Position numbers and translations under genes: made by a program. The notes beneath the pieces are model-generated. The model saw only the letters and a program-made list of their open reading frames with translations, searched no databases and was not told the origin of the DNA. A stretch of 62,202 nt of DNA, the filler included, from Nemertoderma westbladi (taxonomy: Eukaryota > Animalia > Xenacoelomorpha), in the NCBI GenBank assembly GCA_032718475.1. It is 3 parts of 3 records of this genome, joined end to end, with 100 filler letters (N's around TTAATTAATTAA, not from the genome) between each part and the next. Parts side by side here need not be neighbours in the genome. Positions count along the whole stretch, not along the records: positions 1 to 22,551 come from JAUCBJ010005625.1; 2 more parts are not named here. One strand, 5' to 3'. Below, one piece after another: positions 6,306 through 34,829 of this stretch (positions are counted from its first letter, which is position 1; the number at the start of each line of letters is the position of its first letter).

Positions 6306-6413
6306 AATACACCAAACAATGTACCGGTATAAAGGTATTGTCCAACATAACATATAGGATTACCCCTAAAGTTTTGCAGCTTATTTCCAAGGGGGTCCTT
6401 TATGTTACTTGGT
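6304..6413 (-). repeat. Dispersed repeat, 3' region of a LINE-like family (second copy 22440-22551)
   Basis: Near-identical 110-bp direct match to 22440-22551; that copy ends on the minus strand in AATAAA followed by (TCTA)n. Confidence 0.65.
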
Positions 6414-9400: not shown

Positions 9401-9595
9401 ATAAACTGTTATGTTACACAGAGGGATTCCTCGATGTCAACGTATTATATATTTTTGGTACGATAATCAATCTTCTCGTGTTGTTTGGGATGGGTATCTC
9501 TCGGGAAGTTTTACTGCGACTAACGGTGTAATACATGGAAGTATTCTTAGCCCCTATTTGTTCAATATTTATACTAATGATCTTAGCATTGAATT

Positions 9596-12056
9596 AGTAG
9601 TAGTAGTAGTTCCGGGAAAGCGGCCCGGCCCTGATTTCGATAAATAATAGTAAAATGCACAATATAATTATGATTACCTACGCTAAAAACTACAATATAC
9701 TGCATTATCTCGCGATAAACGTACAAGAAGAACTTATTTTTCGTCTATCGAGAGAAATTAATTTATAATTTACTATTTAATATTTGTGTGAAAGAAAATA
9801 AATGTACCTGTGAACAGAAATAACTGCCAGATTTATTGAGTTTCAATTAAGTGTTGCTTTAGTGCCTTCTTGAACATTTGGGCAGAGCCATTCAATAAGT
9901 TCATTCCATAAATTAAGACCCCTATATAGTAAGTGTGAGCGAGCAAAATTAGTACGTGGTGATGGTAATCTATAATGGAATTGCTGTCTAGTTTTCCGTC
10001 CGTGAATACTGATATTAGTTACCATTTTTGTCTTAAAATATTTGGGTACAAAACAGTAGTTCATGCGGTAGTTGTACAGTATATCGTTTTCAAACTGAGG
10101 AATTTGTACATTGCATTAATTTTAAGAAATTTATGATTTGAAAAAATTTATTGTGTTGGGTGTCGGTTTTAATGTGTGGTTTTAATTCAACGATGCGGAC
10201 AGCTTTCTTTAGTAGCCGGACTAGAGGATTAAAAGTGCTGTCATTAATATTACAATTACCCCAAACGATATATAAGGTTCTACCAATGTATTACAGTATA
10301 TAGGAGCTTCCTAATCTGTATTGGAACGAAATGCTTGATCTTATTTATTACACCTACGTTTTTTGATACTTTTATGCGAATATTTTGTATATGTAAATGC
10401 CATGAGAAATTTGATTGGAGGTGAATACCAAGAAATTTAATATTTTCAGTATAGTTTATTGTTCGCCCATCGATTTTGACCCCTGTGTTTTGTGGATTAT
10501 ATGGCTTCATTGAGAACACCATATATTTTGTTTTTTCGAGATTTAAAGATAGTTTATTTAAGCAAATCCATTGATATATATCAGATCATGTACGTTTTCG
10601 CCTGAAATAAATGGGTTTGTATCATCAGCGAAGAGTATGAAATTTACGAATTTTGAAGAATTTGAGATGTCATTTATGTAAATTAAAAATAAAATTGGGC
10701 CAAGGACAGACCCCTGCGGAACTCCACATATCACATCAAGTGTATCTGAAATTGTTCCATTTAAATCAACGTATTGGGTTCGATTGTGGAGATAACTGGA
10801 AAACCATGCTAATGGGGTTCCGCATACACCGTAATGCTCCAAGTTTTTTGATTAACGGTATCAAAGGCTTTATTTGCTAAAATCCAAGAAAACACCAAGT
10901 GTAAGATGTTTATTTTCAATAGCATCTGACAAATTATATTGCAGGAGAGTGAGAGCTGTTATAGTTGATTTTTCCGATTGAAATCCGAAATGATTTTCAT
11001 AAATAATATAATTTTTTATCATGAAGTTTACGAATTGTCGAGAAACAGCCTTTTCTAGAATTTTCGCAAAAAATGGGAGTATACTTATAGGACGGTAATT
11101 TCCAAATTGATCGGCGTTACTATGTTTGAAAATAGGTACAATTCTTGCCACTTTCATTAGATCTGGGAATATTCCCAGAGATAATGATTGATTAAGGATG
11201 TGTGTCAATGGATGGGCTATGTAGAGAAAGTTTTGCCGAGCGATTTGAGAATCAACACCGTCCGAACTCAAGGCTTTTGAATTGGTTATTGATGAGGCAA
11301 TATCATATACATCTTTAGTACTTAGTGGTGAAAAGTATAGTGAGGATGCGGTTTGGTTACCTAGGGTATCATATATGGAACCATTAGTATTAGGAATATT
11401 TTTCGCTAAGTTTGGACCTACATTACGATAAAAGTTATTGAATCCATTTGCAATCGCTGTGTTATTCCTAATTGACGAATTGTTTACTGTAAATGTATCA
11501 GGATAGTTTTGAGGCGAGCATGACGCTCGGGGATTTATAAGTGTTTTTATTATTTTCCAGGATTTCATCGTATTATTTCTATGAATATTAAATAATTTCT
11601 CAAAATAAGCTTTTTTTGCATTCCTAATTATTTTAGTAAGTTGGTTTTTATAAGCCGTATATTCGATTTTTTTGCTTAGAGATCTGCTATTAATGTATTT
11701 TGCATATAGTGCATGCTTACGTCTGATTATTTATAAATACTTTCAGATAGCCAAGGTTTATCGCTATTTATTATCTTTATTTTTTTAGTGGGAAAACATT
11801 TGTTATATAGCTTCTGATATATTTCAATAAACGTATTGTAAGCAATATTGGGGTCACTTTCTTGCGTAACTTCTTCCCAGCCTCCATTGTTAAAAGTTTG
11901 TTTAAGGATCTCCACAAATTTTTTACTGTTTGTTTCCGATCTATCCGTAACTAAGATGTAAGATGGTTTACTATGTTTACTGGGAATTGTTATTTCAGAA
12001 TTGACAAATATGGGTAGACGAATGTTTACGAATGTTTGTAATATCGTTTGTTATGA
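9596..12056 (-). mobile_element. 5'-truncated CR1-group (L2/Crack-like) LINE nested in the Proto2-like element
   Basis: YRPISILPFFAKILEK, FLDFSK, GVPQGSVLGPILFLIYINDI and LFADDT in frameshifted ORFs; (ACT)n 3' tail at ~9596-9612; AATTA at both flanks as a possible TSD. Confidence 0.85.
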
Positions 12057-12281
12057 TAATTAACTGTAACTGGTATAGGGTCTAGGCTTGGGCACTCTTG
12101 TGTCAATCATTTTTTATATGCGGACGATTTATGCATTATTTCAACTTCCCCTATAGCCTTGCAACATCTTATTTGTAGTCGTTATGCTGATTATAATTCT
12201 CTAAAGTTTAATATTAAAAAATCTAAGTGCTATTGTATTTACATAGTAGGCTACGTAAGTTTTCTTCAGATTTAGATATAC

Positions 12282-13247
12282 TACTAGGATCGGCATGCTG
12301 CATTGCAGCTGCATTTTTAAGAATGCTGTGCCGGCTTGTCAACAAAATTGCACCGCCACAACTCCCTAATCACCCATGACATTTGCTAGATCATCCGCAT
12401 CTTCAAGGCCAGTGTCCTTTAAGATGCGTCTCAAGAAAGTCATGGGCTGTCCACCATGCTTATTCACTCCATGAGTCTGCCAAAGTACAAGATTATGCAC
12501 TGGCTGGTCCTCACGGCGAAAGCAATGTCCTGCAAAGCTGAGGCGATTTTGTTCTAGTGTCAAGCTTGGGGGAACCAATGAGACACCTCCAATGTTATAT
12601 AGTGTCTGGTTGGAGATGTGTGCATTGTACTTGACACAATGAACCCGACGTAGCATTCTTGTGAATGTGCCATCCAGAGATTTGGTGTCCTCAGCAGTTA
12701 GAGCCCAGCATGGACTCCCATAGAGGAGTACTGGAACTACTGCTGCTCTAAATAATCGGACCTTAAGTTTCCGATTAATTATCGGTGACTTCCAAATCCT
12801 GTGCCATCCAGAGATTTGGTGTCCTCAGCAGTTAGAGCCCAGCATGGACTCCCATAGAGGAGTACTGGAACTACTGCTGCTCTAAATAATCGGACCTTAA
12901 GTTTCCGATTAATTATCGGTGACTTCCAAATCCTGGAAAGCCTATTCAAGGCTGCCCATGCCTTTCCCTTACGTATTCGAAGGTCCTCACCTGACTTCCG
13001 GATCCATGATCCCAGGTAACAGAAGTCGTCCACATGCTCAAGCATACCATCCTTTGAGCTTATGCTCATCCGATCAGAGACTTGCTGAGGACTTTCAAAG
13101 TTAACTGTCAGAATTTTGGTCTTTCTGGAGTTAATAAAAAGACCAACACTAGAAGCAGCATGTTCTAATGAGCTAAGGAGCCGTTGGGCTCCCTCTAATG
13201 ATTCTGAGAGTACTCCTAAGTCATCAGCAAAGTCTAGATCAACAAAG
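12282..13247 (-). mobile_element. 5'-truncated RTE LINE with internal ~130-bp duplication
   Basis: DFCYLGSWI, KAWAALNRLSRIWKS, VLLYGS. Nearly identical to 16925-17751. TSD TTTAGATATAC at 12271-12281 and 13248-13258. Confidence 0.9.
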
Positions 13248-14003
13248 TTTAGATATACATCTTAATGGGGCAATTCTAGAACGCTTTGACAAATATAAAT
13301 ACCTGGGCCATTTTATATGCAGTGATTTCTCTGATGATATTGGTATTCGTAACCAAACTAGAGGTCATTATGCCCGTGCTAATTTATTAATTAGGAAATT
13401 TAGCTCATGTAGTCGGCCTGTTAAGATTCAATTATTTTCTAGTTATTGTTCCAATTTTTAATGTAACTCACTTTGGGCTGATAAATACCTAACCAAATCA
13501 ACACTGGACCGTCTACGTGTAGATTACAATACTAGTGTTAGGAAACTTTTTGGATATAAATTTGATAAGAACTATAGTGCTTCTGGTATGCTTGTTTCAT
13601 TGCGACTGAAATATTTTGTCCATATTCAACGCTTCTCTCTAGCTAGTTGATTTTCTGATAGCTAGCTGTATTTAGTTCAGATACTATTCTGATGTGTATT
13701 CGCAACATTTGTCTTGATAATTCTGTGCTTCAATCTACCCTTTATTGGAAACCGACTCTAGTGTTTTTGTAGTAACTGTATGTATCATTGTACGTAGGAG
13801 GACTTCATTTGTGCTATTATTGTAATTAATATTGTCAATTGTTATAGAACCTGTATTGGATCTGGAATAAAACATGTAATAATAATAATAATACTATATA
13901 ATATGCAACCATAAGATCGCTAAATTCTATATAAAAGTAATATATATTTTGTTTGATCTTTCAAAATGTCTTATGGCTGCAATCATTAGATATATATATA
14001 TAT

Positions 14004-14690
14004 ACAGTGCAGGCGGACCCAGCAACATAGCACTCCCAGATCTCGCAGTCAGCCACACACAGTGCTGGTGGACCCAGCAACATAGCGACCCCTGATCTAA
14101 CAGTCAGCCACACACAGTGCTGGTGGACCCAGCAACATAGCGACCCCTGATCTAACAGTCAGCCACACACAGTGCTGGCGGACCAAGCAACATAGCACTC
14201 CCAGATCTCGCAGTCAGCCACACACAGTGCTGGCGGACCAAGCAACATAGCGACCCCTGATCTCGCAGTCAGCCACACACAGTGCTGGCGGACCAAGCAA
14301 CATAGCACCCCCAGATCTCATAGTCACCCTCCCGCAGTGCCAGCGGACCCAGCAACATGTTGCCCCCAGATCTCGCAGTCAGTCACAAACAGTGCCGGTG
14401 GACCCCATACATAGCACCCCCAGTTCTCACAGTCAGTCAGAGACAGTGCCGGTGGACCCACAACATAGCGCCCCCAGTTCTCACAGTCAGTCACATACAG
14501 TGCCGGTGGACCCACAACATAGCGCCCCCAGTTCTCACAGTCAGTCACATACAGTGCCGGTGGACCCACAACATAGCGCCCCCAGTTCTCACAGTCAGTC
14601 ACATACAGTGCCGGTGGACCCCAAACATAGGGCCCCCAGTTCCACAGTCAGTCACACACAGTGTCGGTGGACCCCCATATCTTGCATTCA
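14004..14690. repeat. Minisatellite, 55-bp units grading into 57-bp units
   Basis: About 12 tandem copies of CACAGTGC(T/C)GG(T/C)GGACCC..CAACATAGC..CCC..TCTC.CAGTCAG. Confidence 0.9.
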
Positions 14691-15138
14691 GCCGCACACA
14701 GTCTCGACAGATATCGCGGGTAGACTTAATTAATACGCAGTAGTTACACTCTAGTGCGGTCGAATATGTGTGTAAATGATTATGCGTCTATGTATGAACA
14801 CTAAGTTATAAACAAACCATTATTTTACCAACTCAATTACATATTATAATCCAATGTTGTCATATTTTTTAAAATTAATTACTTATTTATCCCAATTATT
14901 TTTGATGATTTTAATTACATCATAATTAACAATGATTATCCTCATAGTTTACCTATACAAATAGCATAGATAGAAAGGACTCAAAGTAAATCTGCACAGT
15001 GTCTGCTTGCAGTACAGTCCCGAAAATGAAAAGATAGCAAAATTGTATTGTTGTAAATAATAATAAATAAATAAGAGTTATTGTTCAGCGTGTCGTTGTG
15101 TTTGAATTGTTTGAGTATAATATCTGAGTTCAATCGCT

Positions 15139-15313
15139 TTAATTGCTGCTACCCACGCGTTCGTCGCTACCATTGCTGCCATTGCTTTCATCACTACCAC
15201 TGCTACCATCGCTTTCCTCACTACCACTGCTACCATCGCTTTCCTCACTGGTACCATTTCTTTTTATTTCCCTTTCTTCTTCACTTTCCTTCTCTTTGTC
15301 CTCGTCGTCGCTG
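15139..15313 (-). CDS. Probable terminal exon of a host gene; acidic Ser/Gly/Glu/Asp-rich C-terminus
   Basis: Acceptor TTTTTTTTAG at 15315-15314; encodes SDDEDKEKESEEEREIKRNGTSEESDGSSGSEESDGSSGSDESNGSNGSDERVGSSN*; phase 2 matches the 19050 donor. Confidence 0.65.
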
Positions 15314-15487
15314 CTAAAAAAAATTAACATTTTGTCAAAAATATTTAGTTAGACAAATGATAATATTTGGCTAAGAATCCAGGCGGGATTTTTGTGTTTC
15401 AAAACGATTTTCTGTGTTCTAAAACATTTCATGATTTCCAAATTGCATCCTATTTGAAGGACTTGTCTTCAACTTGTCTTAGGTTCC

Positions 15488-15760
15488 ACCTTGGTGTAGT
15501 GGTCGCATTGAATTAACATCTCCCGCAGGTCGTGGGTTTGATCCTCACATGGGCCAGGGCAGTTTTCATTTCAGCACGAATACTTTAAAGGGACCATCCA
15601 GGGCGCATCTCTGTCTTGCATCCTTAAGTGGTAGCCAGATGAGTACTTTCCTCTGGGGATTAAAGTTCCGGGTGGAACCGCACTGGAAATAAGTCGTCAG
15701 ACTTTGTGCGTAATCCCTGGCCTAGCGGCCAAAGAAAATATACTTTACTTTTTTACTTTG
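15488..15760 (+). mobile_element. tRNA-derived SINE (family B)
   Basis: TGGTGTAGTGG box A, GGTTTGATCC box B and a (CTTTA)-type tail; inverted copy at 19770-19945 and a fragment at ~17781-17830. Confidence 0.75.
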
Positions 15761-15816
15761 TCTCGAATGATACATGAGAGATAAAATTAAGCCAAGGATT
15801 CAAAACTGCTGAATAA

Positions 15817-17751
15817 CTCTTTATCTCCTGACCGGCTGCCTGTCTCAACCCCTACTGGAGAGAGAGCAGCAAACAAAATTCTTTGAGTCCCTTTACTGAT
15901 GATCTTTCTGACCAAACCCTGGGTCACCAGGGAGGCCAGTTTGTGAGGGGGAGAGGGATTCTGGAGTTGGAGCCTACTCTCATGTTCCACCCCAACAAAC
16001 AAAGCCATTGGTGAATCTGAGGCAAGTCACTAGACTAGCCTCAGTAAACACCTTAACACTCGGGTCCCCAATGCGACAAGGTGAGCTGACTGCCTTGGCA
16101 GATAAGCTTTCTCTTGCGCGCAGTGGGTGTTCAAGAGCACTGAATGCAGACTGGACAGACTGATGAGGTTCTGATTAAGGACATGGGGGGCGGTACGCGA
16201 CTCGCCCTCGAGTTAGCAGATGATAGTGGCAATGGTGTCCATCTTCAGGATTTTATCTCTGGAAATGGATTGTTTTCGGCTGGAACCCAGTTCAAGAAGC
16301 GAACTGGAAAGCTATGGACTCATAGTGGACCCAGTGGTCACAAGTCCCAGATAGTCCATATTCTGTTTCGTAGGAAATACAGGAGCTCTATACAAGACTG
16401 TAATGCATTTACACTTCGACCCTTCTCCAGTAATCACCGCCTTATTGTGGTCAAGGTAAGATTTAGTCTGCGTGCTAGCAGAACAACAAAATCTGCCTTG
16501 CTGCGGCATGACTGGTCCTCTCTGTTGCAACAGCCAAGTGTGAGATGCAGCTTCACACTACAACTGAGCAACAGGTATGAGGTTCTTGCCTCTGAGGAGG
16601 CAGATCACTATGAGGGCTATACTGCCTTCACAGAAGCAGTTAAGTTAGCAGCTGCAGAAACAGTTCCTGTATACCCTCGAAACAGGAAAATCACCCCCTG
16701 GACTGACAACAAAATTCAGAAGTGCCGAAATGACGTCTATAAGGCACAGAAAGAGTCCCGACTCAAACAGACTACAGCGGACAAGAATGCAGTTAAGGCT
16801 GCATCTAGGTCCTGAACAGGCAGTACTCTGTTACCGCATGTCCTTAGATCATCATAATGATGATGGGGTGATGATAACTCCACCTACTGGCTCCAGAAGT
16901 CGAGGAAATCCTGCCAAGTACCTAACTGATCTAGACATTGCTGATGACTTAGGAGTACTCACAGAATCACTAAAGGGAGCCCAACGGCTCCTCAGCTCAT
17001 TAGAACATGCTGCTTCTAGTGTTGGTCTTTTTATTAACTCCAGAAAGACCAACATTTTGACAGCTAACTTTGAAAGTCCTCAGCAATTCTCTGATCGGAT
17101 GAGCATAAGCTCAAAGGATGGTATGCTTGAGCATGTGGACGACTTTTGTACCTGGGATCACGGATCCGGAAGTCAGATGAGGACCTTCCAATGCGCAAGG
17201 GAAAGGCATGGGCAGCCTTGAATAGGCTTTCCAGGATTTGGAAGTCACCGAGAAATAATCGGAAACTTAAGGTCCGATTATTTAGAGCAGCAGTAGACCC
17301 AGTACTCCTCTATGGGAGTCCATGCTGGGCTCTAACTCCTGAGGACACCAAATCTCTGGATGGCACATTCACAAGAATGCTACACCGGGTTCATTGTGTC
17401 AAGTACAATGCACACATCTCCAACCAGACACTATATAACATTGGAGGTGTCTCATTGGTTCCCCCAAGCTTGACACTAGAACAAAATCGCCTCCGCTATG
17501 CAGGACATTTCTTTCGCCGTGAGGACCAGCCAGTGCATAATCTTGTACTTTGGCAGCCTCATGGAGTGAATAAGCATGGTGGACAGCCCATGACTTTCTT
17601 GAGACGCATCTTAAAGTACACTGGCCTTGAAGATGCGGATGATCTAGCAAATGTCATGGGTGATAGGGAGTTGTGGCGGCGTAATTTTGTCGACAAGCCG
17701 GCACATCATTCTTAAAAATGCAGCTGCAATGCAGCATGCCGATCCTAGTAG
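15817..17751 (+). mobile_element. RTE LINE with internal deletions and 29-bp TSD
   Basis: APE remnant (WTHSGPSGHKSQI, SSNHRL) jumps at ~16815 to the RT C-terminal part (DLDIADDL); (TAG)n tail; TSD TAAGCCAAGGATTCAAA(A/G)C(T/C)GCTGAATAA at 15788-15816 and 17752-17780. Confidence 0.9.
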
Positions 17752-17829: not shown

Positions 17830-18960
17830 GGCCGATATTTTTGACTATTTGGTCATTTTAGAATTTTTTGTAATTCATCTATATTTTTGACTATTTGGTC
17901 ATTTTAAAATTTTTTGTAATTCATCTGTATCTTTGAGTGAGTTTGGTTGGGAAAACCGATATTTCGTGACTTTTCCAAAAACTTAATGGGCTATTCGAGT
18001 TTTTATGGCTCACTAAAATTTATTTATTTGCGGTTGGCCTAATATAGGTTTTTTTAGGTTGGTGATCACGAGTAAAAAACTTAAATTTAATATTCGAGGA
18101 AATATTTGGTAATTTTGAATGTGCCACCTGGGACACATTCAAATCGAGTGCCTTATTCTTAAAATTCACAAAAAAGTTGTGCAAATATGATAATAAAAAT
18201 TCACCACAAAATCAAATTGATTTCACGTACATATGGGTTTATTCTGGGAAGCTGATCACGAAAATGACAGTGAAATATATTCGTACCTTTTTGATTAGGT
18301 CATTTTTGGATATGTGTCAATGGGCGGCACGAAAAATACAAGTAGCACAATTTTGATAATCAAAATCCATCACCAATATAACAAGATGTTAAGACATAAA
18401 GGGTTTTCTTGGAAGCTGGTTACGAATATGACACTCAAAAAATATAGTATTATTCAATCATATTCGATTTTTACCGTGTGAAATTTATGCTACTTGTATT
18501 TTTCGTCCCACTAGACAAGCAAAAAAAATGATAGTTGCGATACCACATATATGATTTTAACGAGTTGTTTCATGATCAGCGACCTTGAAAACCAGCTTCA
18601 GAATTACCAAACCAGAATGCCAAATTTAATAGTTTGTAATACTAAAACTTTTACTATTCGTTCTGTGTTTCCAGAATGGCACCAAAATTTGGCTTACTTA
18701 ACAGAAATATTTATATCTAGTTTCATCGTGATCAACGACCTGGAAAACCCGTATACACCTTCAGAATTATCAAACCAAACATAAAATTTTTTAATTTGAA
18801 ATATTGTCTTTTACTTTTCGTCCTAGGGGACCAACATAGCACCAAAAATGTTGGTTACATTGCCAGAAAATATTATTGATAGTTTTATCGTGACAAACTA
18901 CCTTGAAAACCCTTATACAATCAACATTATAATTTTTGAGCCAATTACATCTAAAAATTT
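17830..18960. mobile_element. Non-autonomous DNA-transposon-like element with mirrored subterminal motifs
   Basis: Motif ~TATGGGTTT..GG..GCTGATCACGA occurs three times at 18040-18430 and inverted three times at 18570-18920; related motifs at 41760-41910. Exact ends not resolved. Confidence 0.45.
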
Positions 18961-19049
18961 CTAAAATATTGAGACCTTCTAACAGTACAGTAGATAGCGT
19001 CAGCTGTCATCAGATGCTTGCTATATATATTTAAACTTTATCTTATAAC

Positions 19050-19167
19050 CTTTTACTTTCACTTTGAGACTGATTGCTTGCACCTTCTGGACCTTCTTCG
19101 CTCGCATTCCCCTCGTCACCAATGCTGGCGTTTTCTCCATCTTCCAAACTTTCTTCTCCACCTTCAT
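19050..19167 (-). CDS. Probable internal exon of the same acidic-protein gene
   Basis: AG acceptor at 19169-19168 and GT donor at 19049-19048; 118 nt open, encoding EGGEESLEDGENASIGDEGNASEEGPEGASNQSQSESK; splices in frame to 15313. Confidence 0.65.
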
Positions 19168-19769
19168 CTAATTAATTAATATATAATAGTTTCAGTTTAG
19201 TATAAAAATATTTCCGCATCGTGGATTAAACCTACATTATAAAAGGTAATATTGTGAGTTGAATTTAATGAACTTCTAGGCTATTTGGGATTAAAACTCT
19301 CTGTCCTGTGATATTATTTGGAATCTGGGTAGACCGCCAAGCATTGCAGAGTGTGTAGTAGAGAGTTAATTAAAAATTAATAAATATAAAAGTTTTTTAC
19401 ATAAATAAATAATAAGGTTTAACTTTCTTTTCTGTAATCGATTTCGATGTACAGTTGATTGGATTTTACGATTTCCCATTTTATCTCGTTAAATATTTAT
19501 ACCCCACTTCAAAATTCAAATCACCTTGAACAACATATATTTTAACAATTTAATTGTGTCTGTAGGATATAAGATATCCCCTCCCCCCCTCCCCGATCCC
19601 AGTACCCCGCATCTCATCAAAGAAACTCACCCCCCCCCCCCCAAATTCCTTATGGTAGAATCCTTTATTGTCGCTAACCTCTTGTGATGTGAAATGAATT
19701 CGCGTCGAAACAGGCGAATGGACATATACTGGACGCTTGTCATGGATCCGCCAGTGAAGTAAAAATACA

Positions 19770-19945
19770 AGTAAATTTTCTTCGGCCGCTAGGCCAGGGA
19801 TTACGCACAAAGTCTGACAATTTATTTCCAGTGCGGTCCCCCCAGAACTTTACTCCCCAGAGGAAACTCCAGTACTCATTTAGCTACCACTTAAGGATGC
19901 AAGGCAGAGATGCGCACTGGCTGGTCCCTTTAAAGCATTCGTGAT
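19770..19945 (-). mobile_element. SINE family B, 5'-truncated copy
   Basis: Reverse-complement match to ~15573-15750. Confidence 0.75.
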
Positions 19946-20805
19946 TTCTCATCATTAATTAATTTCCAAATCTCTGTGCAAATATTCAAGCTAGTTCAAT
20001 TATATATCTCAACGAATATTTTTTAACTTTTATCAAACTTACTTGACAAAAACGTAAGAAGAAAAATTGTTTGATTACTTTTTTTCAAAACCAGTATCAA
20101 ATTTGGTGCCTCTATTCTTGACTTTTAGAGTACAGCTTTCATTAATTGACATTCCTAAATCACATTTTGCTGCTACACGACTTCAGTAACGGTAAAACGT
20201 CGACGCCCATAAATCTACTTCAAGTTAATATAATACACAGTAGTTAGTACATTCCTTGTCTTGGTTGATGATGGATTCCTGTTACTAATATTCTATGGTT
20301 TGTTAAGCAATTCCATCATGGTTGCTCTGATTAAGAAAATAGGTACTTGTTAATTTTGAGGTCCTTTGCTTATATTACATTGAGTTTAATTTATTATGTC
20401 GGCCACACCATCGCCAGATGATGCAGCAATGCCTCCACAGTAGGGTGGGTCATCACGAAAAATAGTGTATGGGTAGCAATAAAGTACTTAGAATGTACTT
20501 TGTACTTTGTACAATGTACTTAGAACAGTTATGATATAAAAAAAATATTCAATAATTAAGTTTATGCCTGCCGCCTTGCAGTCAAAAATATTGCGTTTTG
20601 CCTAATTTTGCCTTAAAAGGGCCTTTGTGAGTTTAGGCAGTTCCAACCAGGTTATGAAGTCTAGTTTGGTCTCTATTGATCCGCAATTGTCGATTTAGGG
20701 TGAATGTGGTTGTCTGGATGTTATATAAATATTTGATTTCTCAATTTTTTAAAATCTATAGGCATTTATATTATCACTAATATATAACATAAATATATTA
20801 AATAT

Positions 20806-21496
20806 TAATAAAAATAAAATAATAGGAAGGCATTTTAAAAAACCATGTTCAGCATGATCCGGTCTCTTAAATATAATTTTGAGTTGAACAAATTATGTTT
20901 TTGACAGACCAATATCAAGCAAGTAAAATTAATTGGAAACATAGAAACAACATGTTCCTATCTGTTCAACCGTAAGTAGTATTTAATTATATAGTAAGTA
21001 TTTAATTATTTAAGCAGGGACATAAAGCGCAACCCTGTTTAAATACTGTAAGTAAAATTATCACATTGGTTACACTTTTGCATATGTGTTTCGCCGGGAT
21101 TTGGCTCATCAGCTACACTAACCCGCCGTGCAGGACACATGTTAATCAAACTAACTACACCAAAAACCAGCTAAACACACACACATACATATAAACAAAT
21201 AGCATTGCATTCCAGATCAAATAAGCAATCATTTCCTTAGCAACACTATATGAGATAATTTGTCTAGTGCATGGTTGCTAATTATAATAACAATATTTTA
21301 TATTTAAGAGACCGGATCATGCTGAACATGGTTGTTTAAAATGCCTTCCTATTATTTTATTTTTATTATAATTAGCAACCATGCACTAGACAAATTATCT
21401 CATATAATGTTGGTTGCTAAGGAAATGATTGCTTATTTGATCTGGAATGCAATGCTATTTGTTTATATGTATGTGTGTGTGTTTAGCTGGTTTTTG
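20806..21496 (-). mobile_element. Ribozyme-bearing non-coding retroelement (retrozyme-like or Penelope pLTR-like): one ~479-nt monomer plus an inverted partial copy
   Basis: 21298-21496 is the reverse complement of 21161-21290 joined directly to 20806-20876; the monomer contains a hammerhead ribozyme and no convincing ORF. Confidence 0.65.
21084..21140 (-). ncRNA. Type III hammerhead ribozyme
   Basis: Minus strand reads AUGUGUC^CUGCAC-GGCGGGUUA-GUGUAG-CUGAUGA-GCC-AAAUCCC-GGC-GAAACACAU. Full catalytic core, GUC cleavage triplet, 6-bp stem I, 3-bp stem II and 6-bp open stem III. Confidence 0.88.
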
Positions 21497-21633
21497 CTAA
21501 CTTCTGCAAACCGAATTTTACGTTTTATGTTGCAACTTTAAATCCATGCTCACAGCTTGTTATATTATGATAATTGATGTTAACGACATACTGACTAACA
21601 GGAGGTTGGTATGTATATATTAAATTAAATTAA

Positions 21634-21770
21634 AGGAAGAACAGGAGTCTTACACCCCCAATAAAAAATATAGAATCAGGACATTTAGCCCAAAATAGAG
21701 GTGTAACATTTTGGGCTAAATGTCCTGATTCTATATTTTTTATTGGGGGTGTAAGACTCCTGTTCTTCCT
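21634..21770. mobile_element. Palindromic MITE, Kolobok-like
   Basis: Perfect ~62-bp inverted arms (AGGAAGAACAGG...CCTGTTCTTCCT) around a ~13-nt spacer, flanked by TTAA at 21630-21633 and 21771-21774. Confidence 0.7.
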
Positions 21771-22395
21771 TTAATTTAGCTTGTTATATTGGCAGAGTAT
21801 GTTGTGAAGGTTTATGCGCCAATGTGGTTCCCTATAAAACTAGAGCCTCAGTGCTATAAGGGTTCTGTGCACTTTTTGTGATCGCTAACCTTAGCTGGTT
21901 TTTGGCACCAGATGAATATTAGGTAGTAAAAACAACACTGAGAAAGAATTATTTTTGTGGACATTCCGAAAATATTTTACTCAGCATGTTAGTTGATGAA
22001 CGTAGCCATATTAGGGTATTAATGCTGGGAGAAGAATCAAGTTAGCAAGATCAAGAGAGCATCAAATTATATTATGGTGTATACGTAACATCAATATATA
22101 TCTTTGTCTACTTTACGAAATAAGTTTAGGAAACTTTTATATCAAGGTTTTAAATTATATTTATAATTATATATTATATTATATTTAAAAAAACTTTTAT
22201 ATTTATATCAATATTTATTACAACTTTTTGCTTTCCGTGCTCTACACTACAATTAGACACAGTAAAACAATGTTGAAAAGGCATTATAAGTGAACATTGG
22301 CAAACATTGTCAAAGATATATAAATATAGCGTCCATATTTATACATGATGTAACTCAAAGTTTTCTGCAATTTTAAAGTGTTCATCCATGTTTTA

Positions 22396-22551
22396 AGATA
22401 GATAGATAGATTTATTTATACATTATGTAAAAACAATATCAAATACACCAAACAATGTACCGGTATAAAGGTATTGTCCAACATAACATATAGGATTACC
22501 CCTAAAAGCTTTGCAGCTTATTTCCAAGGGGGTCCTTTATGTTACTTGGTT
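22396..22551 (-). repeat. LINE-like 3' end running into the gap
   Basis: Minus-strand AATAAA then (TCTA)n; shares 110 bp with 6304-6413. Confidence 0.55.
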
Positions 22552-22651
22552 NNNNNNNNNNNNNNNNNNNNNNNNNNNNNNNNNNNNNNNNNNNNTTAAT
22601 TAATTAANNNNNNNNNNNNNNNNNNNNNNNNNNNNNNNNNNNNNNNNNNNN
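22552..22651. other. Assembly gap with artificial six-frame-stop linker
   Basis: N-run, TTAATTAATTAA, N-run; same layout as 53144-53243. Confidence 0.97.
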
Positions 22652-25600
22652 CGCGTCTCTCTGTTAATGATTTCTTTAGAAATTCATCACACCTATTCAA
22701 ATGGTGGGTCCCGTCGCACAGCGCACATTTCGGTTTGATGTTACTTACCTTATTTTGAGTCACATTGTGTACACTTGCCTTTTCTTCGGGCTTTCTCACC
22801 TGAATTCTCTTGGGAGACGTGGGAGGAGTTTTTCTTACCTGTTCCCTCCTGTCATTTGTTCGAGACTTGAATTTACTTACCTGATCTTTAGGCATTTTAT
22901 TCACGTAATAAGATCTATCCGTGTCCTTCCCGCTATCTTCTCCTTGAGAAGTTTGGCTTTCGCCGTCATCAGTATAACATACTGGTGTTACCTTTCTCCT
23001 AGAGACGGGTTTTTCACTTACCTTGCTTTCCGGTGTCTTCTCTCTGGACAGTTTCAGGAGCTGTAATTTCACTTCTCCATCTAGGAATGACATGAGATCA
23101 GCCATGGTAGGGTCTCGCCGTTGTTGTTCCATCATATATAACACTTTCTTATCCCAGCGTGTACCTACTCCACCTTTAGGTAAAGTAGAAGCCACTGCTC
23201 TAATAACCATAGTGTTCTGATACTCATGAGACTTACCTAGCCAATCTAATTGTCTGCAGATCTCCTGGATCTCATCGGAAAACTCGATAATTCCGCTACT
23301 AATAAACTTTCGGGGCGCTACTAACTTTGCATACAAGTACCCAGCGATATTATTCCTATTACCATACCTGATGTTTAGTGTATCCCAAACTTGTCTTAAT
23401 CCGTCTGGATGTCCAATAAACTTTAACGCCATTAACTTGGGAGATCCTTCCAAGCACTCGATGAGGTATCTAAGTTTTTCTCCATTAGATAGTACAGAGT
23501 TCTGTATGTTATCTTTGTAATATTCATTAAAAGGTAACCATTTCATCTCATCTCCATTGAACTTGACGATCTCTCCCACCTTTACCGCTTGCCGGGCTTC
23601 GGTTCTAGCCATTTGACGCGTAAAACTTTCTTGGGCCATCGTGTTATTTAATATCGAGTTATCGGTATATAAATTTCTCGGATTATGATCCGGTCTATAG
23701 GGAATATCATTATCAACAGGTCTATAATTACCCTTAATAGGGTTCACTATAGGAGTTTCTACTTCGCTAGCAGTATAGATGCGTGTAGGCTCCACACCTT
23801 GCGCATGAGATACTTCAGACCTAACGGGTTGACACATTGTTACAGGGGGTGGTGGTATACCCTTTTGTAAATTTACTAATTTATCGCGTTCTAACGCGAT
23901 ACTTTGCTGCACTTCTTGCAACTCTAACTTACTTTCCCTCACTGTTCCTTTTAAATGTTGGACAGTCCCTTCCAACTCTCGGACCTGTTGGGAAGAGCGT
24001 ATCCGATTCTCCTTCATCTCTCCTAGGAGAATATCCATCCCCCGCCGTCTCTCGTCTACCCAATCAACCGCCGAAACGGGATCCGCCAACGTCGTAGCGG
24101 GCAGACGAGGGACAACGGGCGACAAATTTGGAATATTTCGCTCGGGGTCCAGGACCTGAACTGTCTCCTGGGCAGTTCTACGGGGCACAGGTAGCTTAGT
24201 GCTATGCAGAGGGAATTTATAGGTAGCTTCAGGGAGCACAGGTGTATCTATTACCGAAGGGGTGATTTCAAGAACAGGCCTACTTATTTCAGGCTCATCT
24301 ACTATAGTAGGGAGTCTTTCTATTGTAATTATTTGGTCTGTGGGTTCTGTACTCTCTAAGTTGGTGTTATTTAGTTGCCTTCTAACAGCTGGAGGCAAAT
24401 CAGGCAATTTCTGACGGTGGAATGTTCTTTTACGTCTGCTTAGGCGGGATCGATTTCCTCCGCCTTCAGTGTCGGTGGTATCGCCTTCCTCAGATGATGT
24501 ATAACCTTGTCGTTTGGGAGTAGATCGATTCATCATCTGCATATTACTAGCTGTTAACTGTTTATTAAAGTTATCTTGCCTCTCTTGAAGATTTTCCAAC
24601 TCTAGTTGGGTTGTCTCTTCAGATGCCCTCCGTTCTGCTTCTGCCACTGCTATCTTTCTTTCCGCTTCTGCAGCTGCCGCTTTTGCCTCTGCCGCTGCCG
24701 CTTTCCTTTCCGCTTCTACGGCTGCAGCTGCCGCTTTTGCCTCTGCCGCTGCCGCTTTTATTGCTGCAGCTGCCGCTTTTGCCTCTGCCGCTGCCTCTGC
24801 TGCCTTTCTTTCCGCTTCTGCCGCTGCCACTGCCGCTGCTGCTGTCTTTCTATCTTCTATACGTTTTTTCCTTACTTGTTCTTCCTTTTCTCTAGCGATG
24901 CGGAGTTGTTCATCGAATTTAGCTTGGTTCGCCGCTAACCTATCCACATCAATCGCATCTAACACAAGTTTGGCTCCTTCGCTATTAGGGCTAAGTCCCT
25001 CTAGCCTTCTCCTCAACTCTTCATCTCCCAAAAAACGCTGATAGTCTGACAGATAGATATCAATGGCATCCTTCTTATGCGGTTTCTCTGCCGTCGCTTC
25101 ACTTTCCACTTGGGAAAAAGTAGCGTCCGTCGATTCTCCATGTGTTGAGCGCTCCTCCAACTGAGCTTTCCACTGAGCTGCTCCTTGAACCTGGCGTCTC
25201 ACCCTTTGAAGCCAAGTCTTTACGGCAACTTGCAACGACGTGTCTTGTCTTCTTTTAGAAGCCTCCTCAAAGGCGGATAAGATTAGCCTAATTCGCAGAA
25301 CTCTTTCTCTAACTTGATAAAGCAGCTGTCCCTGCTCTTGAGGTCCTTGAGGTTGTTTAAACAGTTGTCTTTCTACTCGCTCCATAGAGCTGAAGAATCC
25401 CTGTGCGTATCCGGCTGCGGACCTCTTCCATACAGCTGGATCGATGGTTTCCTTGGCTACTCCCATCCGGTGTATGTCTTCCCAGGCAGCTTCTGATAAA
25501 TCAAACGGGAGTCCGGGTCCGGGGAAGTTCCATTGCGACTCGACAATAGACTTCAATTCTTCCCTCGTGTACCCCGCATAACTATCTCTAGTTGATCGTT

Positions 25601-26021
25601 GACTCCTCGCCCAATCGATCTGGTGTTCTTCCACCGCGATCAATAACCTAGTGAGTACGGCTGCAGGAAGGATGAGAAGGGGATCCGTATAAACCGCATC
25701 CGTCATCTCTGCTCCGCGCTCGGGTGTCAGCTCTACAGTATCCTCACTACTGGAGCTGCTGGGCCGATGAGGAATAAGTTCTTGACTCGCGGGTTGTTGC
25801 TGTTCCGCTGCTTCTTGGTCCCGCTTGACCTGAGCTCGAGTGCCTATGATAGACCTACGATGTTGGACTAGCCTAGGTTCTGTTATTACTACTGGAGGGA
25901 TGACCTTCCTCACAGTGGGAGGTGAACTGGACTTACGACTAGAGGGTTCTACACCTCTATCTGAGTTGCAGATAGTTACATCTAATAGACTGTCTGACAG
26001 GTTCTGCTTAGTATCAGACAT
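22652..26021 (-). CDS. gag: BEL/Pao Gag(-Pol) polyprotein, N-terminal >1120 aa, open up to the gap
   Basis: DUF1759-type region KFNGDEMKWLPF...LSNGEKLRYLIECLEG...LNIRYGN; first Cys-His box CALCDGTHHLNRC; long Ala/Glu/Lys coiled-coil segment. Confidence 0.85.
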
Positions 26022-27396
26022 ATTTGTGAGTACAGTTGAATGCCTACTGCTATATTACAGTCTAAGCAAGTCTAGTAATTCAGTATTAACTGCTAGCCTA
26101 GTAATTAATTACCGATACTGCTACTCAGTGTAGCGTGATATATATAATATATTAAATACCGGTATGCTTATAGTATATATAAGTATTATTACAGACTAGG
26201 TTTATCACAGAATACCGGTATAATTTTAGCACAAATGTATATAAATATATAATAGGCCTATCGGGAATACCGGTATACAGCTTACAGTTTTGTAGTATAT
26301 ATAATTATAATTCTGGACTAGAATTAATTATAAAGTACCGGTATAATTTCAGCCTAAATTTATAGAAATAAAGATAATAGGCCTATCGTAAATACCGGTA
26401 TGTCAATTATTTTAAATAATTGAATTTCTGTATTTTAGGGTTACTTGGTTACTTTACTTACTTTACTACCGTTATTTGAGCAGTAATCCAACTGATATTA
26501 AGACCTAATGGTTGTATGGTAGGCCTACTATTTATAAATCGTTAGATTTGATTTATAATATATATATACCCATTTTAATGGGTTTTGTCAATGTTTGAAA
26601 TAAATGTTATTATTTCTGGGGAGTAATCACTACACAAAGCGGTGCGCTTTCAGTGAAGTGTTACTTATAGGACACTAAAACAAATAATACTAATTTACCT
26701 AAGTTACTTAATACTACAAATTACGTACAATTCGGGTGAGATTACAATCTCTAAATAAACACAAAAATTTACAAAAACACAAAATACGAAATTTTTAGGG
26801 TAATTTTACAAGAAGTCTACAAACCAGCCTAACGAAGGGTTAGAAAACTGGTTATTACAACGGACAGGGTACTACGGTATTTGAAATAATAAGTAGTAGT
26901 AAATACACTGCGTTGTCCAGATAGGAAAATACCACCGCCTGACGACCTATAGCCGTATCGCTATAGGTTCTACGTTATGTATCACGGAGTGTTCCTACCT
27001 AGAAGTTAATAGAGCTAATCGAACGTGCCTATTAACCACTTTACACCACAAATGTAATGCCTACAATAATTACTTTCGGAAAGCACTGTACACTAAACCC
27101 TAAATTAGGTACGAGTACTTGTACAACAGATAATCAGTAGTTAAATATACTTGAACAGCTAAAAGAACCACGGCATCTGCTGGAGTGACCGATGCACAAA
27201 ATCACCAGTCTTTACCTACGCCAAGCAGCCCGTGTAGTACCGGGGTTAATTTAACTATAGCGGTATGTATAACAAACACAATTACTGTAGGAACAAACTT
27301 GGGGAATGAATGTTGCGGATAATCGCATAAACTCTGAATAATAAATATTATGCTACGCGTACAAACTACTCAAACAAAATGCAGACCGAACACTGA

Positions 27397-28278: not shown

Positions 28279-29479
28279 TGTTCGCGCTTTCAGACCTTTG
28301 GCAGTTTAACCCGCCAAATTAAGATGTCTTCTAGATATTAAATCGCTTTTTAGCCTATGACAAGTATTTGATTCACTACACTAGTCGAAACCAATCTGTG
28401 CGCGACCATTCACCCGCTGGATATTCCCGGGAGATTGGGTTCGACGGTTTAATTTTATTGCTATGTAAGCCTAATGTATTATTCGACTGACAGTATTATA
28501 TAATCTCTGACAATATTATTCACCTTCGGGAATATTAACAGTTCCTTTAGGACGTGGCGCTTTATTTATATAAACAGAGTTATGACTTAAACTACTCGCA
28601 ACGATATGGCTTAATTATAATTCACATATATGGCGCATTCTTTAGGAAATGCTTCTTTAACAGACTTACTCATACACAATGCTGCACAATACTGCACACT
28701 AATCTGCCAATCTTCACTGATTTTAGTCACATATAAAAGGAACACAGACTGACTCATGTAGGGTCTATCAAATAACATTAGATTCACTTCAAACCACTTT
28801 AACATAAGTCACAATCGTTATTGGTAACCTTTCTCTCTTACCTTCGGTATATCAAGAATATTGGGTGTCGGGGTTATTTCTCGTTATTCCAATATAATAA
28901 TTCATCAACAAATATAATGAATAACCGACAACAAATAGCAGTATACGGTATTGATTGAGCAGGTAATTTTAGCAGCAGTTATTCAAGTGATTAAAAGCCA
29001 GTTTGTTTGAGTTAAGACAATCAGTCAGTTAAAGGATATATGTCCTTATAATTAAACCTACTAGTGTTGAGCTAAAAAGCAGAAAGCACAAAACACTAAA
29101 AAGCCGTTCTTTCGTGGCTTTGAAAAACTCGTGACTACTGCTCTATACGAGGATACCAACTCCCTTATTCCACGAAGCTCCCGTTCAACACAGAGAAAGA
29201 GCAGTGAGATAGGAAAATTTCAGTTCAGTAGCTCTGTGATAGGTCAAAATCAAGGCTAACTCAAATTCTATTGGGGGATACAAAAACAAGGCTATGACGC
29301 AACCTCCCTAGGCTTGTTGGCCGATTAAACAGAGCCCAGATGCCTGCGTACAGCAAATCAGCCAATAAGCTGGTAACTTGCACTATTTTTAGCTATAGAT
29401 CCCTTTAGAGTATTCTAGCGACCGGGGGGGAACTGGCCAACAAGGCAAACGAATCAGTTATCCCACAAAAGCTTTTACA
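28279..29479 (-). repeat. 5' LTR (1201 bp) of the BEL/Pao element
   Basis: Reverse complement of 53928-55158 with TGT/ACA termini and an internal AATAAA. Confidence 0.92.
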
Positions 29480-31328
29480 GTGAGGGTGAAAGGGAGACCA
29501 TGTTGTAGGTGGATTGACAGAAGCTGGTGAACTGTGAATATGTGGTCTGAGCATGACCGACCTTTGCGGAATCCTGCCTGTGATTCTGATATTCTTCCTC
29601 TGAGTGATGCATTTAGCCTTGATAACAAGATATATGAAAAGATCTTTAAGGGAACGGATAACAAGCTGATGCCACGAATGTTGTTACAGTGACGTGTATC
29701 TCCTTTCTTTGGTAGAGTCACAATATCCCTTTCCCCCCAGTCACCAGGAACTTATCCTGTCTCTAGAATATGGTTATATAGTTTGAGCAGGTGGTGTTTA
29801 GCTTTTCTAGAACAGGCTTTTAGTTCTTCTGGTGTGATGTTATCGGGGCCTGGTGCCTTTCTTCTTTTTAGACGGTTAATTGCTAATTCAAGTTCGCCCA
29901 TGTTCATTGGAGACAAGTCTAATTCTATGTCTTCCTCAGCTGGGGGGATATCTGTCCCTGTTGTTGTTGGTTCCGGTGCATTGAGGAGTTCTTGGAAGTA
30001 TTATTCTAATCGATCAATCTGTTCTTGTTTCATGGCTAACAACCTGCCAGTTTTTGAGAAGACTTCACGTTGCCGAGGTTTAAAATGATTTGTTAGAAAC
30101 GGATGGTCTTAAAGACTTCTCTTGAGTCATTTCGTGTGTAAGCAAGATTACATGCTTCAGTTTGTTGTCGTATATCTTCTCCTTTCTCCTCACGTAGCTT
30201 GCTGTGTGTTTCTTTGCTGAGGAAGTTTAGTTTGGATTTGAGGTCTAGACGAATCTGTTTTCGCTTTTGTATTATATCTGTAGTTTCAACACTTAGCGGA
30301 CGTTTAGTACCACGTGTGGTTAGAGGTAGGGTATCTTTAGCTGAGGTGAACGCGGTTTGTATTTTCTTCCATTGATTGTTTGATTTACGTTGTGGCGAGT
30401 TGGATAAGGATGAACTAGTGGATGGAATGCTATCTAGAGTAGAGTCCAAAGTGTCTTGGTATTCCTTTCTGGTGTCTTCTTGCATGAGTGAGTCCAGTTG
30501 ACGTTTTGGTGGTGTTGGTGGGGCTTCCGACCAACGGCGAATACGGAAATGGATATCAGCAGTGAGGGGGTAGTGATCCGAGAAGTGATTCGTTTTAGGA
30601 ATAGATTCCATAAAAGTTATTAGTTTTCTAAGTGGTTTTGGGCAGATAATGAAGTCCAAGACATACCAAGGGTTTCTGTCAGGGTATGGTACATTTGGTG
30701 AGATAAATGTCGTCATCTTTAGTTTGTTATGGTGGTTCCAGAACGTGTTGTTTATTATTAGCTGATGTTGTCTGCAGAATTCTACGAGCAGATCCCCATT
30801 ATTGTTGCGATTGGGGAAATTTGCAAGACCTATAATATCAGAATCTTGGGGGTTTGATATTCGGTTGCCGACTTGTGAATTGAAATCTCCAAGAATAAAT
30901 ATATTTTGCGGGAATCGGTGGAGTTGTGTGTCAAGTTGTTGTAGGAAATCTTCCATTTGCCCAGCTGGGGATTGGTTGCATGGAGCGTATATCGAGAGGA
31001 AATTGATGGTACGAGACCATGTTCCGATCGTCAGACGGCATAGGCGTGGTGAAATAGTCTCAAAACCTGAAATTGCCTTCGCCAGTTTTGGGTGGACAAT
31101 AAAACCAGTACCCTTTCGGTGTTGGTAATCTGATGGATCTGCAGGTGAAGATATAACGGTAAAACCTTCTGAGTTGTAAGTTCCTCCTTCTGGCCACCAT
31201 GTTTCTTGGATAGCCAGAAGGTGAATCTGATGCTCCCGCATGTCTTGGATTACCAGCCGTAACCGTCCAGTTGCGAATAGTGATTGTACATTCCATGTGG
31301 CGATTTTGGACTTACACAGTTGGGGCAT
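29480..31328 (-). mobile_element. RTE-clade LINE (APE plus start of RT), cut by the BEL insertion
   Basis: IATWNVQSL, IQETWW, IYAP, LGDFN, FSDH, then KAPGPDNI, LPKKGD...RGISLLS and QAGFRKGRSCSDHIF; frameshifted. Confidence 0.88.
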
Positions 31329-33339
31329 TATTTTGATCAAATGCAGAATATGAAATGTGATTATAAAGAAAGTTATCGGTACTAAACAGAACGTCAAAAC
31401 AATAACGAAAATATTTACTATAATACTCCAACAGCTAAAATTGATTACTTTGAAAAATATGGTTGTTACGAAAAATTTATATTGCTGTATTGCGTATTTA
31501 TTGCGAAAAGGTCAAGTTTAAAGCATTATCTCTGGTTCTGTAAGAGTGTGCATCACGCCTTCTTTTTATACACATTTTTGTCTTAGGAAAATTGGACTCA
31601 TCATTTTGCACCACATGGATATCTGCTTAACTCTACTATACAAAATTAAGTAGCCCAGATTCAGAAAGGTCAACTATAGTTAGATTTTGCCCGGATTTGC
31701 AATTTTTAATAGATCTCAATAATATTTCATGAGCAGATATCAATTTAAGTTGTTATTACCCACCCATGCCAAGAAAAACAAGCATAGTCTAGGTGAAATG
31801 TTATTAAACGACGATCAATACACCCTCAGAGACTCGGTATTCAGACTATTTTCATGTACGCACAGAAAAGTCAAGTCAAAGCCTACTGTTAACTTTCTGA
31901 AAAATATTTCTCTCCGCGCCTTCCCCAGATAAGCAGTTATCCAAAATGGACTTAAATTATAACAATTACTAGTTACTTCAAATTTAGATCCATAAAAATA
32001 CATTAATTCAAAGATGAATCCTAATTTGAAAATTTAAGAAACTGATCAAAGATAGGAACTAAAATGGATACACACTTTCTACTTCGTTACCATGTAGCCC
32101 CCAAACGTCTACAAGTAATCTATATAATTGTACTATTTTAACTCGATCAATAAAGTGGTTATGTAGTAACGTGCCAGTTGCCTGTGCCAGCATGCCAGTT
32201 ATATTGGTTGGGTCTGCAATTTTAGGGCAAGGGCGTAGAGTTGAGATGATACAGGAGTAAACATAGGTCCTGGCGGGCTTCTTACATAACCATAACAGCC
32301 AATAGGATGCATGTTTTCTCTGCTCCTATAGTGTTGGTTGTCCACAGTGCTGTCTTTGGGGGAATGCTAGCAGCAGGTGTATCAGGTTAGATGTGTAACA
32401 TCTGCAACACTTCTACTTATCTTCCTATCTTGCGTCATTAATGGTTCATTTAGTATAAGCCAGTGGGATATTGGCTTTTTTGCCTGTAGGGATTGATATT
32501 CTGACGGACTAATATGCTGCCGTGTGGGGGAAGGGGGTTTGGGTATGGAGGCTAATCCTAGAAATATGTTAATATGTCCCTCTCATTAATAATGCTGGGA
32601 TGAGAGCAAGGGTTGGTGGTTGGAAGGTTTGTAATCAGAGAGCATTGGTGTTTGTTTATAGTCAAACCTATAAATCAAATTGACATGTTTATTCGTTTTC
32701 CCATAGATGTTGTCGGTTTGTTCTTTTCAGGTTGTTGCTCGGTGAATATTCAATATAGCAGGGGTATAATATCAATAACAAAGGGGTATCATCATCGGGT
32801 TATTAATATCATGACGCTTGTAATGAAAAGGTAAGTGGATTTTCTATTGGGGTAGTGAGGTGACATTCTTTTATTTTTGGTAGTGATGTTGTCCGTTATC
32901 GTTATAGGATAGAGTTGGAATTAAATAGTAAGTAAGTATTAGTAATTTGTTAGTTGGGTAGTGCGCTATGCTGTATCTTACCCATAGGAGCCCAGCCCAA
33001 CACCTACAGGGGGTATTTAAGGAATACCCTACCCTGGGTTAGATGTCTCTAGTGTTGCCACTAAAAGTTGCGGAACCCTATACCGCATGGAAATTAAAAC
33101 CCCTGAAAGTGAAAATGAAAATGAAAAGTTGGGTAAAATGGGATGTGAAGGGCCTGCACAATTTCGGTTGTTTTTAGCAGCTTTTTCTTTTGAAAGGGTT
33201 TGCGGAAAAAGATCAATTTTCAGGCCATTTTTGGAAATTACTAAAATGTGCCTTAGGGCCACCAGAGGCTTAATCCGGCACTGTAACTTACGGTTGTGAA
33301 ACCTGATACGAGGGATCGTTGGCACCTATGACTAAAATG

Positions 33340-34371: not shown

Positions 34372-34713
34372 TAGAGTAACAACGAGCAACAACGACTAAC
34401 AACGAGCAAGAACAAGCAACAATGACCAACGATGACCAACAACGAGCAACAATGACCAACAACGAGCAACAATGAGAAACAATGAGCAATAATAAAGTTC
34501 AACAACTAGCAACAATAACCAACAACGAGTAACAACGACCAATAATAAAGTACAACAACGAGCAACCTTGACCAGCAATGAGCAACAACGAGCAACAATA
34601 ACAAACAATGACCAAAAATAAGCAACAACGAGCAACAATGAGCAACAACGAGCTACAATGATCAACAACGAGCAACAATGAGCAACAACGAGCAATATAA
34701 TAAAGTATAACAA
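34372..34713 (-). repeat. 12-bp-unit minisatellite (AACAACGAGCAA type)
   Basis: Degenerate tandem array, inverted relative to 34830-35625. Confidence 0.9.
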
Positions 34714-34829
34714 TGATGAATGTATCTGTGTAATCTGTTTAGTGGTTTACTCTAGTTACTGTATTAGTTACTGTTATTGTAGTTACTGCTACTTATTGTA
34801 GTTACTGTTTATCACTGTTCATTATTATT

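Follow-up and report, generated by a model that had tools for sequence, protein, structure and literature searches.

Metazoan non-LTR retrozymes are defined with type I hammerheads in the available portions of PMC7229834 and bioRxiv 10.64898/2026.07.22.740005. The latter, a preprint by Li, Clavereau and Pollet, describes in its accessible sections a search by type I models only, and one of nine predicted frog retrozymes cutting in vitro. As far as the accessible text of PMC7229834 (Cervera and de la Pena 2020) goes, animal ribozymes are mostly free in their circles, some mussel circles excepted, and plant and viroid ones are blocked. In the circles of plant LTR retrozymes an arm blocks the hammerhead (PMC4918200, Cervera, Urbina and de la Pena 2016, partial text). 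Regarding Penelope-like elements, excerpts of two papers describe insertions with an adjacent inverted, truncated 5' copy (PMC8557442) and a protein with AT-rich targets (PMC11167929).

We analysed a 62,202-nt stretch of Nemertoderma westbladi DNA, hereafter the window, for which a preliminary description had proposed a complete type III hammerhead with a kissing-loop contact, of a topology uncommon in animals. The statement that animal hammerheads are mostly of type I agrees with the available portions of PMC7936874 and PMC7761336, but type III animal motifs, isolated and longer-stemmed, have been published from termites and flies (PMC7936874). The motif of the window belongs to a repeat unit that is likely a small jumping RNA circle, combining the layout of an animal retrozyme with the ribozyme design of a plant retrozyme.

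The hammerhead motif and its loops

The elements of the motif, all on the minus strand, are the following; the parts within it were read from the sequence.

21084..21140, minus strand: type III hammerhead motif (sequence and descriptor search; RF00008 at 28 bits, under the gathering score)
21140-21135, minus strand: stem III 5' strand, 6 bp with the 3' strand ending at 21084
21134, minus strand: C17
between 21134 and 21133, minus strand: predicted cut after GUC
21133-21128 with 21118-21113, minus strand: stem I, 6 bp including one G-U
21119..21127, minus strand: loop 1, 9 nt
21112-21106, minus strand: core CUGAUGA
21105-21103 with 21095-21093, minus strand: stem II, 3 bp
21096..21102, minus strand: loop 2, 7 nt, on the 3-bp stem II; possible kissing partner for loop 1
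21092-21089, minus strand: GAAA

Sequence inspection and a descriptor search placed every ribozyme element of the preliminary description at its announced minus-strand position between 21140 and 21084. The same two approaches bore out an intact core (CUGANGA, GAAA, an NUH triplet and three helices) and the topology, which is type III because short loops cap helices I and II, leaving helix III as the open one. Applied to both strands of the whole window, the descriptor search returned 21140-21084 (minus) as its single match, so that a hammerhead on the opposite strand was excluded; no type I hammerhead match was found anywhere in the window. In 150 simulated windows built with the local dinucleotide frequencies, there were 8 looser type III matches and none with stems of at least 6, 3 and 6 bp. 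The motif is thus complete and beyond chance. In the Rfam search that had been suggested as a check, RF00008 (Hammerhead_3) covered its full model at 21083-21141, but the 28 bits obtained are below the gathering score of 48.5; the match had an E-value of 3e-4 in a 231-nt search and was unlisted in a 4-kb search. Rfam microRNA matches near the locus were all below their own gathering scores and were rejected as side effects of inverted repeats.

Folding calculations did not return the hammerhead as the minimum-energy fold, even without any upstream sequence of the kind described below. For the isolated motif, an alternative fold lies 3.3 kcal/mol below the hammerhead, and 4.7 kcal/mol below it in the short-loop variant; nearest-neighbour folding energies leave tertiary contacts uncounted.

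The contact announced between loops 1 and 2 fared less clearly. The 5-bp complement is present, but alone it amounts to no more than chance because random loops of the same lengths reach 5 bp in 8-13% of trials; it was also reached by 5 of 75 distinct type III motifs from our scans of metagenome and viral collections. A 3-nt deletion in loop 1, at 21123, is common in the family, with 6098 of 31092, 10057 of 31057 and 2804 of 6020 units of summed contig depth (20%, 32% and 46%) in the sequencing runs X1, X2 and X3, respectively. One 50-nt X3 contig with the short loop reaches a depth of 2775, against about 20 in flank contigs. The deletion variant keeps the stems and the GGGUU stretch, and its loop complement is still 5 bp. 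Judged from sequence, this is one event consistent with a kissing contact, and such a contact is possible.

The repeat unit and its locus

Around the motif, the following features were delimited.

20806..21290, minus strand: one complete unit of the repeat, 479 bp and an additional 6 nt of terminal redundancy (depth changes stepwise near 20806; joint from 21284 to 20806)
20833..20975, minus strand: predicted hairpins in the remaining unit (circle fold; three short helices, 5 G-U vs 1 A-C)
21291..21298, no strand: 8-nt filler at the inner junction of the inverted and direct copies (sequence)
21299..21496, plus strand: inverted partial copy, in which the final 70 nt of a unit run head-to-tail into the initial 124 nt of a following one

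The unit has a GC content of 32% and is non-coding, the longest ATG-initiated ORF on the circle, junction included, having 35-36 aa. It contains no purine tract of at least 10 nt, no tRNA and no poly(A) tail. Its 3' end is AT-rich and runs into an AT-rich flank; no target-site duplication was seen at its ends and direct terminal repeats are absent.

Of nine sequencing runs, four contain part of the window; contigs of X1 to X3, which represent two samples, and of X4 were compared with positions 20300-22100. Depth over the unit, which is summed contig depth and not copy number, was 3,891-92,050 in X1, 5,386-73,777 in X2 and 1,131-16,067 in X3, against 12-28 in the left flank. With depth rising by two to three orders of magnitude over the unit, the family is very abundant. 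Decayed copies exist, with up to 12 differences in 76 nt. In X1 and X3, three contigs each, behind 21125, appear to depart from the unit one base short of the predicted cut, with mixed consensuses (agreement 0.62); such departures would fit copies from cleaved RNA, as a hint only, and the neighbouring 21122 row is readable as a diverged copy. In the fourth run, X4, only guessed to be RNA, the unit has a depth of 5.6. This run is uninformative on expression because an unrelated neighbouring repeat has the same low depth, and trace DNA explains both equally well. All 9 differences of the X4 contig fall outside the 42 ribozyme bases that it covers, which is not significant.

Head-to-tail joining of units was seen in two independent places, namely in the inverted copy of the window and in the X4 contig, which jumps back 479 bases from 21284 to 20806. 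Arrays with two ribozymes were not directly seen, the evidence being the junction only. The locus itself is not an array: it consists of a dispersed monomer with an inverted head, and its flanks have low depth. The inverted copy differs from the main copy by one substitution and two 2-nt insertions. Among the contigs of the family, three other joints between opposite strands were found, so that fold-back arrangements recur. A head-to-tail junction together with an adjacent inverted partial copy is, by analogy, a Penelope-like arrangement; Penelope-like reverse transcription would explain both the template of more than one unit and the inverted head. The Penelope partner is inferred only, because a scan of 53 of the 80 window ORFs turned up no GIY-YIG domain.

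The same arrangement suits a different origin, in which an autonomous Penelope-like element carrying a type III hammerhead in place of a type I has the unit as its pseudo-LTR, and the locus is a 5'-truncated, inverted insertion of this element's tail. The adjacent copy in inverted orientation and the AT-richness of the 3' end both match Penelope-like insertions, and frog retrozymes are homologous to pLTRs according to the accessible part of bioRxiv 10.64898/2026.07.22.740005. Against it, the units are joined head-to-tail directly in two independent places with no ORF between them, no ORF of more than 99 codons between stops occurs in 18500-22560, and pLTR hammerheads, in the portions of the literature available, are of type I. 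We consider this origin unlikely.

The window consists mostly of repeats. A 1152-codon open frame at 22596-26054 (minus) runs into an N gap and carries a long N-terminal region with alanine-rich repeats and a DUF1759 gag domain at 832-959, which we take to be of BEL/Pao type. LINE-type endonuclease/reverse transcriptase frames lie at 7505-9531, 10558-13261, 29458-31511, 40940-41662, 55269-56663 and 57562-60471; most are broken, and one of 969 codons has both domains. The Atlas clusters nearest to the gag and LINE ORFs are mostly eukaryotic, most commonly Arthropoda, with one row labelled archaeal and one unrecorded; indirectly, these ORFs make an animal host likely. At 21554-21790, two copies of a 13-bp target sequence enclose an insert of 211 bp (21567-21777) that contains a long hairpin; the insert has very high contig depth, is skipped by one X2 contig and is a separate abundant small mobile element. 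A 112-bp repeat is found at 22439-22550, where it ends at the N gap, and at 6303-6413 with 98% identity. The N stretches 22552-22651, the first one, with a 12-base palindromic spacer, and 53144-53243 join separate contigs. Long tandem arrays occupy 48346-50685 (period 20 bp), 50840-51366 (19 bp), 14004-14674 (55 bp) and 34374-35622 (10 bp).

With BEL/Pao-type and LINE ORFs in the window, the unit might be an LTR retrozyme of the plant kind, or might be SINE-like and mobilised by a LINE, with ribozyme and lock inside a terminal repeat. A type III motif with a locking arm is indeed the design of plant LTR retrozymes, and the sense strand has one A-box-like and one B-box-like match. Yet the unit lacks the direct terminal repeats, purine tract, target duplication and poly(A) tail of such elements, its GC content is far from the more than 55% of the plant ones, and its repeated part is inverted. 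The minus-strand matches that we take to be A-box-like (21162-21151) and B-box-like (20889-20881) are separated by 273 nt, and T runs occur both ahead of the two and in the interval. We dismissed a Pol III promoter as unsupported: the spacing of the A-box-like matches at 21162 and 21120 and the B-box-like match at 20889 (expected numbers 0.12, 0.19 and 0.07) is wrong, and the first is preceded by a T5 run. We also rejected any connection with the BEL/Pao-type gag, since the gag lies across an N gap. We regard an LTR or SINE-like nature as quite improbable.

The lock arm and its predicted release

Directly upstream of the motif lies one further element.

21141..21193, minus strand: lock arm, 53 nt, the complement of 21122-21071, which spans the 3' strand of stem I, the core, stem II, GAAA, the 3' strand of stem III and sequence past it

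The alignment of the arm with the ribozyme comprises 33 Watson-Crick pairs, 11 G-U, no A-C, 8 other oppositions and 1 gap, and one of 2000 shuffled arms scored as well as the real one. The duplex is predicted at -46.5 kcal/mol in the sense orientation and -19.6 kcal/mol in antisense; 500 shuffled arms gave a mean of -21.3 and a best value of -34.7 kcal/mol. The excess of G-U over A-C in the arm has a p-value of 0.0005 under a symmetric null and of 0.065 under a null with local base composition; four smaller helices add a further 7 G-U vs 1 A-C. The cost of forcing the hammerhead grows with the length of upstream sequence included, from 3-5 kcal/mol with up to 20 nt to 10-11 kcal/mol with 30 nt and 17-29 kcal/mol with at least 40 nt. 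It amounts to 16-29.5 kcal/mol with the arm, to 17.8 kcal/mol in the circle and to 18.3 kcal/mol in an uncut dimer, which is predicted fully locked. The upstream arm is thus predicted to block the adjacent hammerhead. A transcript of 21060-21170, proposed earlier for a cleavage assay, contains part of the arm, with a predicted 10.1 kcal/mol against the hammerhead fold, and could therefore yield a false negative.

Two configurations lower this cost in our calculations. With the whole inverted copy upstream, as when a transcript reads through from 21496 or higher, pairing of the inverted copy to the arm brings the cost down to 3.3 kcal/mol. In a transcript running from a first cut through the second ribozyme, the arm pairs with the 3' half of the first ribozyme and the second hammerhead costs 4.6-6.2 kcal/mol. 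According to the folding, the motif is freed if coverage by the inverted copy stops between about 21165 and 21141 but not if it stops above 21175, and coverage reaching further would block it. The inverted copy ends at unit position 21161, within the lock arm and within this release span of about 25 nt in a unit of 479 nt: one instance, with a chance of about 5%. A 15-nt exact match to part of the arm also occurs at 21891-21905 (plus), about 400 bp past the inverted copy and in its orientation; it is the only one outside the element.

Taken together, we think it fairly probable that the abundant non-coding 479-bp unit is a non-LTR retrozyme-like, non-autonomous retroelement, whose multimers would be cut, whose monomers would be circularised and locked, and whose reinsertion would be carried out by a Penelope-like reverse transcriptase. 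By analogy with known retrozymes, cleavage behind every GUC would turn multimeric transcripts into unit-length RNAs of 479 nt and a host ligase would close the monomers into circles. In the circle, the arm is modelled to lock the ribozyme and so protect the circle. Along a multimer, a relay may operate: the arm would pair with the 5'-terminal ribozyme half of the same cut monomer and the block would be lifted from one unit to the next. Pairing between the arm and this 5' half may also hold the ends of the monomer together for ligation; in the predicted fold of the cut monomer, the two ends lie side by side at the tip of a rod. At the 21290-20806 locus, the upstream inverted copy is predicted to pair with the arm and lift the block. 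A Penelope-like reverse transcriptase would finally paste copies at AT-rich sites, again as expected from known retrozymes.

Two consequences follow from this scheme. Having a single ribozyme, the locus cannot release a unit on its own, and such a single-ribozyme copy is probably an offspring. As the uncut dimer is predicted to be locked, the relay depends on an initial cut, or on transcription beginning between the arm and the motif, where no promoter was found.

The strength of the lock, which is transcribed first and persists in the uncut dimer, is also what would be expected if the family spread at the DNA level as a satellite, its ribozyme being a relic or permanently locked and never cutting in vivo. 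The misfolding of the isolated motif by 3-5 kcal/mol and the decayed copies point the same way. A satellite is nevertheless difficult to reconcile with a perfect core, with a dispersed monomer and inverted head between low-depth flanks instead of an array, and with a common loop deletion that leaves the stems and the kissing stretch intact. Folding also favours the ribozyme strand: compared with 40 shuffles each, the circle fold has z-scores of -2.35 to -2.88 over four intervals on this strand and of -0.87 to -1.29 on the opposite one. We therefore give the satellite explanation little credence.

Comparison with described systems

Metazoan non-LTR retrozymes are likewise short, abundant, non-coding units joined head-to-tail, with one hammerhead each and low GC (below 45-50%); they also lack LTRs and a purine tract, occur as monomer copies and have been proposed to be mobilised by Penelope-like elements. 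Unlike the unit described here, theirs are of type I and, in the accessible text of PMC7229834, mostly predicted free, whereas ours is of type III and predicted locked. The length of 479 bp exceeds their usual 150-450 bp but falls within the range of 51-972 given in the available part of the preprint. With plant LTR retrozymes, the unit shares a compact type III motif, a 6-bp stem I, a long arm pairing with the motif and the predicted block in the circle. It differs from them by the absence of LTRs, purine tract and 4-bp duplication, by its GC content (32% vs more than 55%), by its size (479 nt vs 600-1000) and by its stem II of 3 bp, its 7-nt loop and its possible Watson-Crick contact between loops, where theirs have a 4-bp stem and a 4-nt loop. 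The element is thus retrozyme-like by inference, yet misses one defining feature of each published class.

[quoted passage not shown] Their helix I is extended and contains an internal loop, and their stem II has 6 bp, unlike the compact motif of the window, and the termite genomic ones are isolated motifs whereas ours is within an abundant repeat unit (PMC7936874). Penelope-like elements, as described in the available portions of PMC8557442 and PMC11167929, share with our locus an inverted 5'-truncated copy by the 5' end, a partial tandem, an AT-rich target and a repeat-borne hammerhead; in contrast, no ORF with reverse transcriptase and GIY-YIG domains is present at our locus, and their hammerheads, in those portions, are of type I and often minimal.

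The literature searched, including the accessible parts of PMC7761336, PMC6155905 and PMC6765202, yielded no head-to-tail animal repeat that carries a type III hammerhead. In our own scans, the type III pattern was detected in 95 stretches (93 distinct loci) of metagenome contigs and in 18 of viral contigs, none of them of the family of the unit, and the hammerhead core pattern was absent from the prokaryotic genome contigs scanned. The genome-wide hammerhead surveys of 2010-2011, and supplements in the literature, may list animal type III repeat motifs. In each of three metagenome contigs (L005, L014 and L076), a type III hammerhead occurs twice in identical form, at distances of 1158, 1191 and 1392 nt, respectively, as expected for assembled circular RNAs or repeats; they are unrelated to the 479-bp unit.

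These scans bear on a possible descent of the unit from an infectious viroid-like circular RNA, captured and amplified in the genome and perhaps still copied from RNA to RNA. Size, a circularly closed unit, a type III motif and a locking arm make up a viroid design, and the HDV-like circles from toad and termite bear type III hammerheads (PMC7936874). Unlike viroid-like replicons, though, the unit has no ribozyme on its opposite strand, and its circle fold is branched and about 60% paired instead of rod-like. BLAST with the unit gave matches in 2 of the 111 metagenome and viral type III loci, each over about 30 nt of core, and none of the 111 shares more than that. Such a descent appears highly improbable to us.

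Going one step beyond the retroelement reading that we favour, the unit could represent a third class of animal retrozyme: viroid-built circles mobilised by Penelope-like elements, with a type III ribozyme held by the arm and released by the relay, and with the inverted head acting as a genomic starting key. This proposal, built on modelled folds, is offered as a rather doubtful one.

In the portions of the literature available, two groups of retrozymes are distinguished: those of plants have LTRs and a type III ribozyme that is locked in the circular form, and those of animals lack LTRs and have a type I ribozyme that is mostly free. A non-LTR unit that is abundant in an animal, contains a type III ribozyme and is predicted to lock it would cut across this division. 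Searches based on type I models, such as the pipeline of bioRxiv 10.64898/2026.07.22.740005, would overlook elements of this kind. The predicted switch of arm and relay bears on how circles avoid re-cutting. If the reading is true, ribozyme topology would not be tied to the mobilising partner, and the unit would offer a possible bridge from genomic retrozymes to the type III viroid-like and HDV-like circles of animals.
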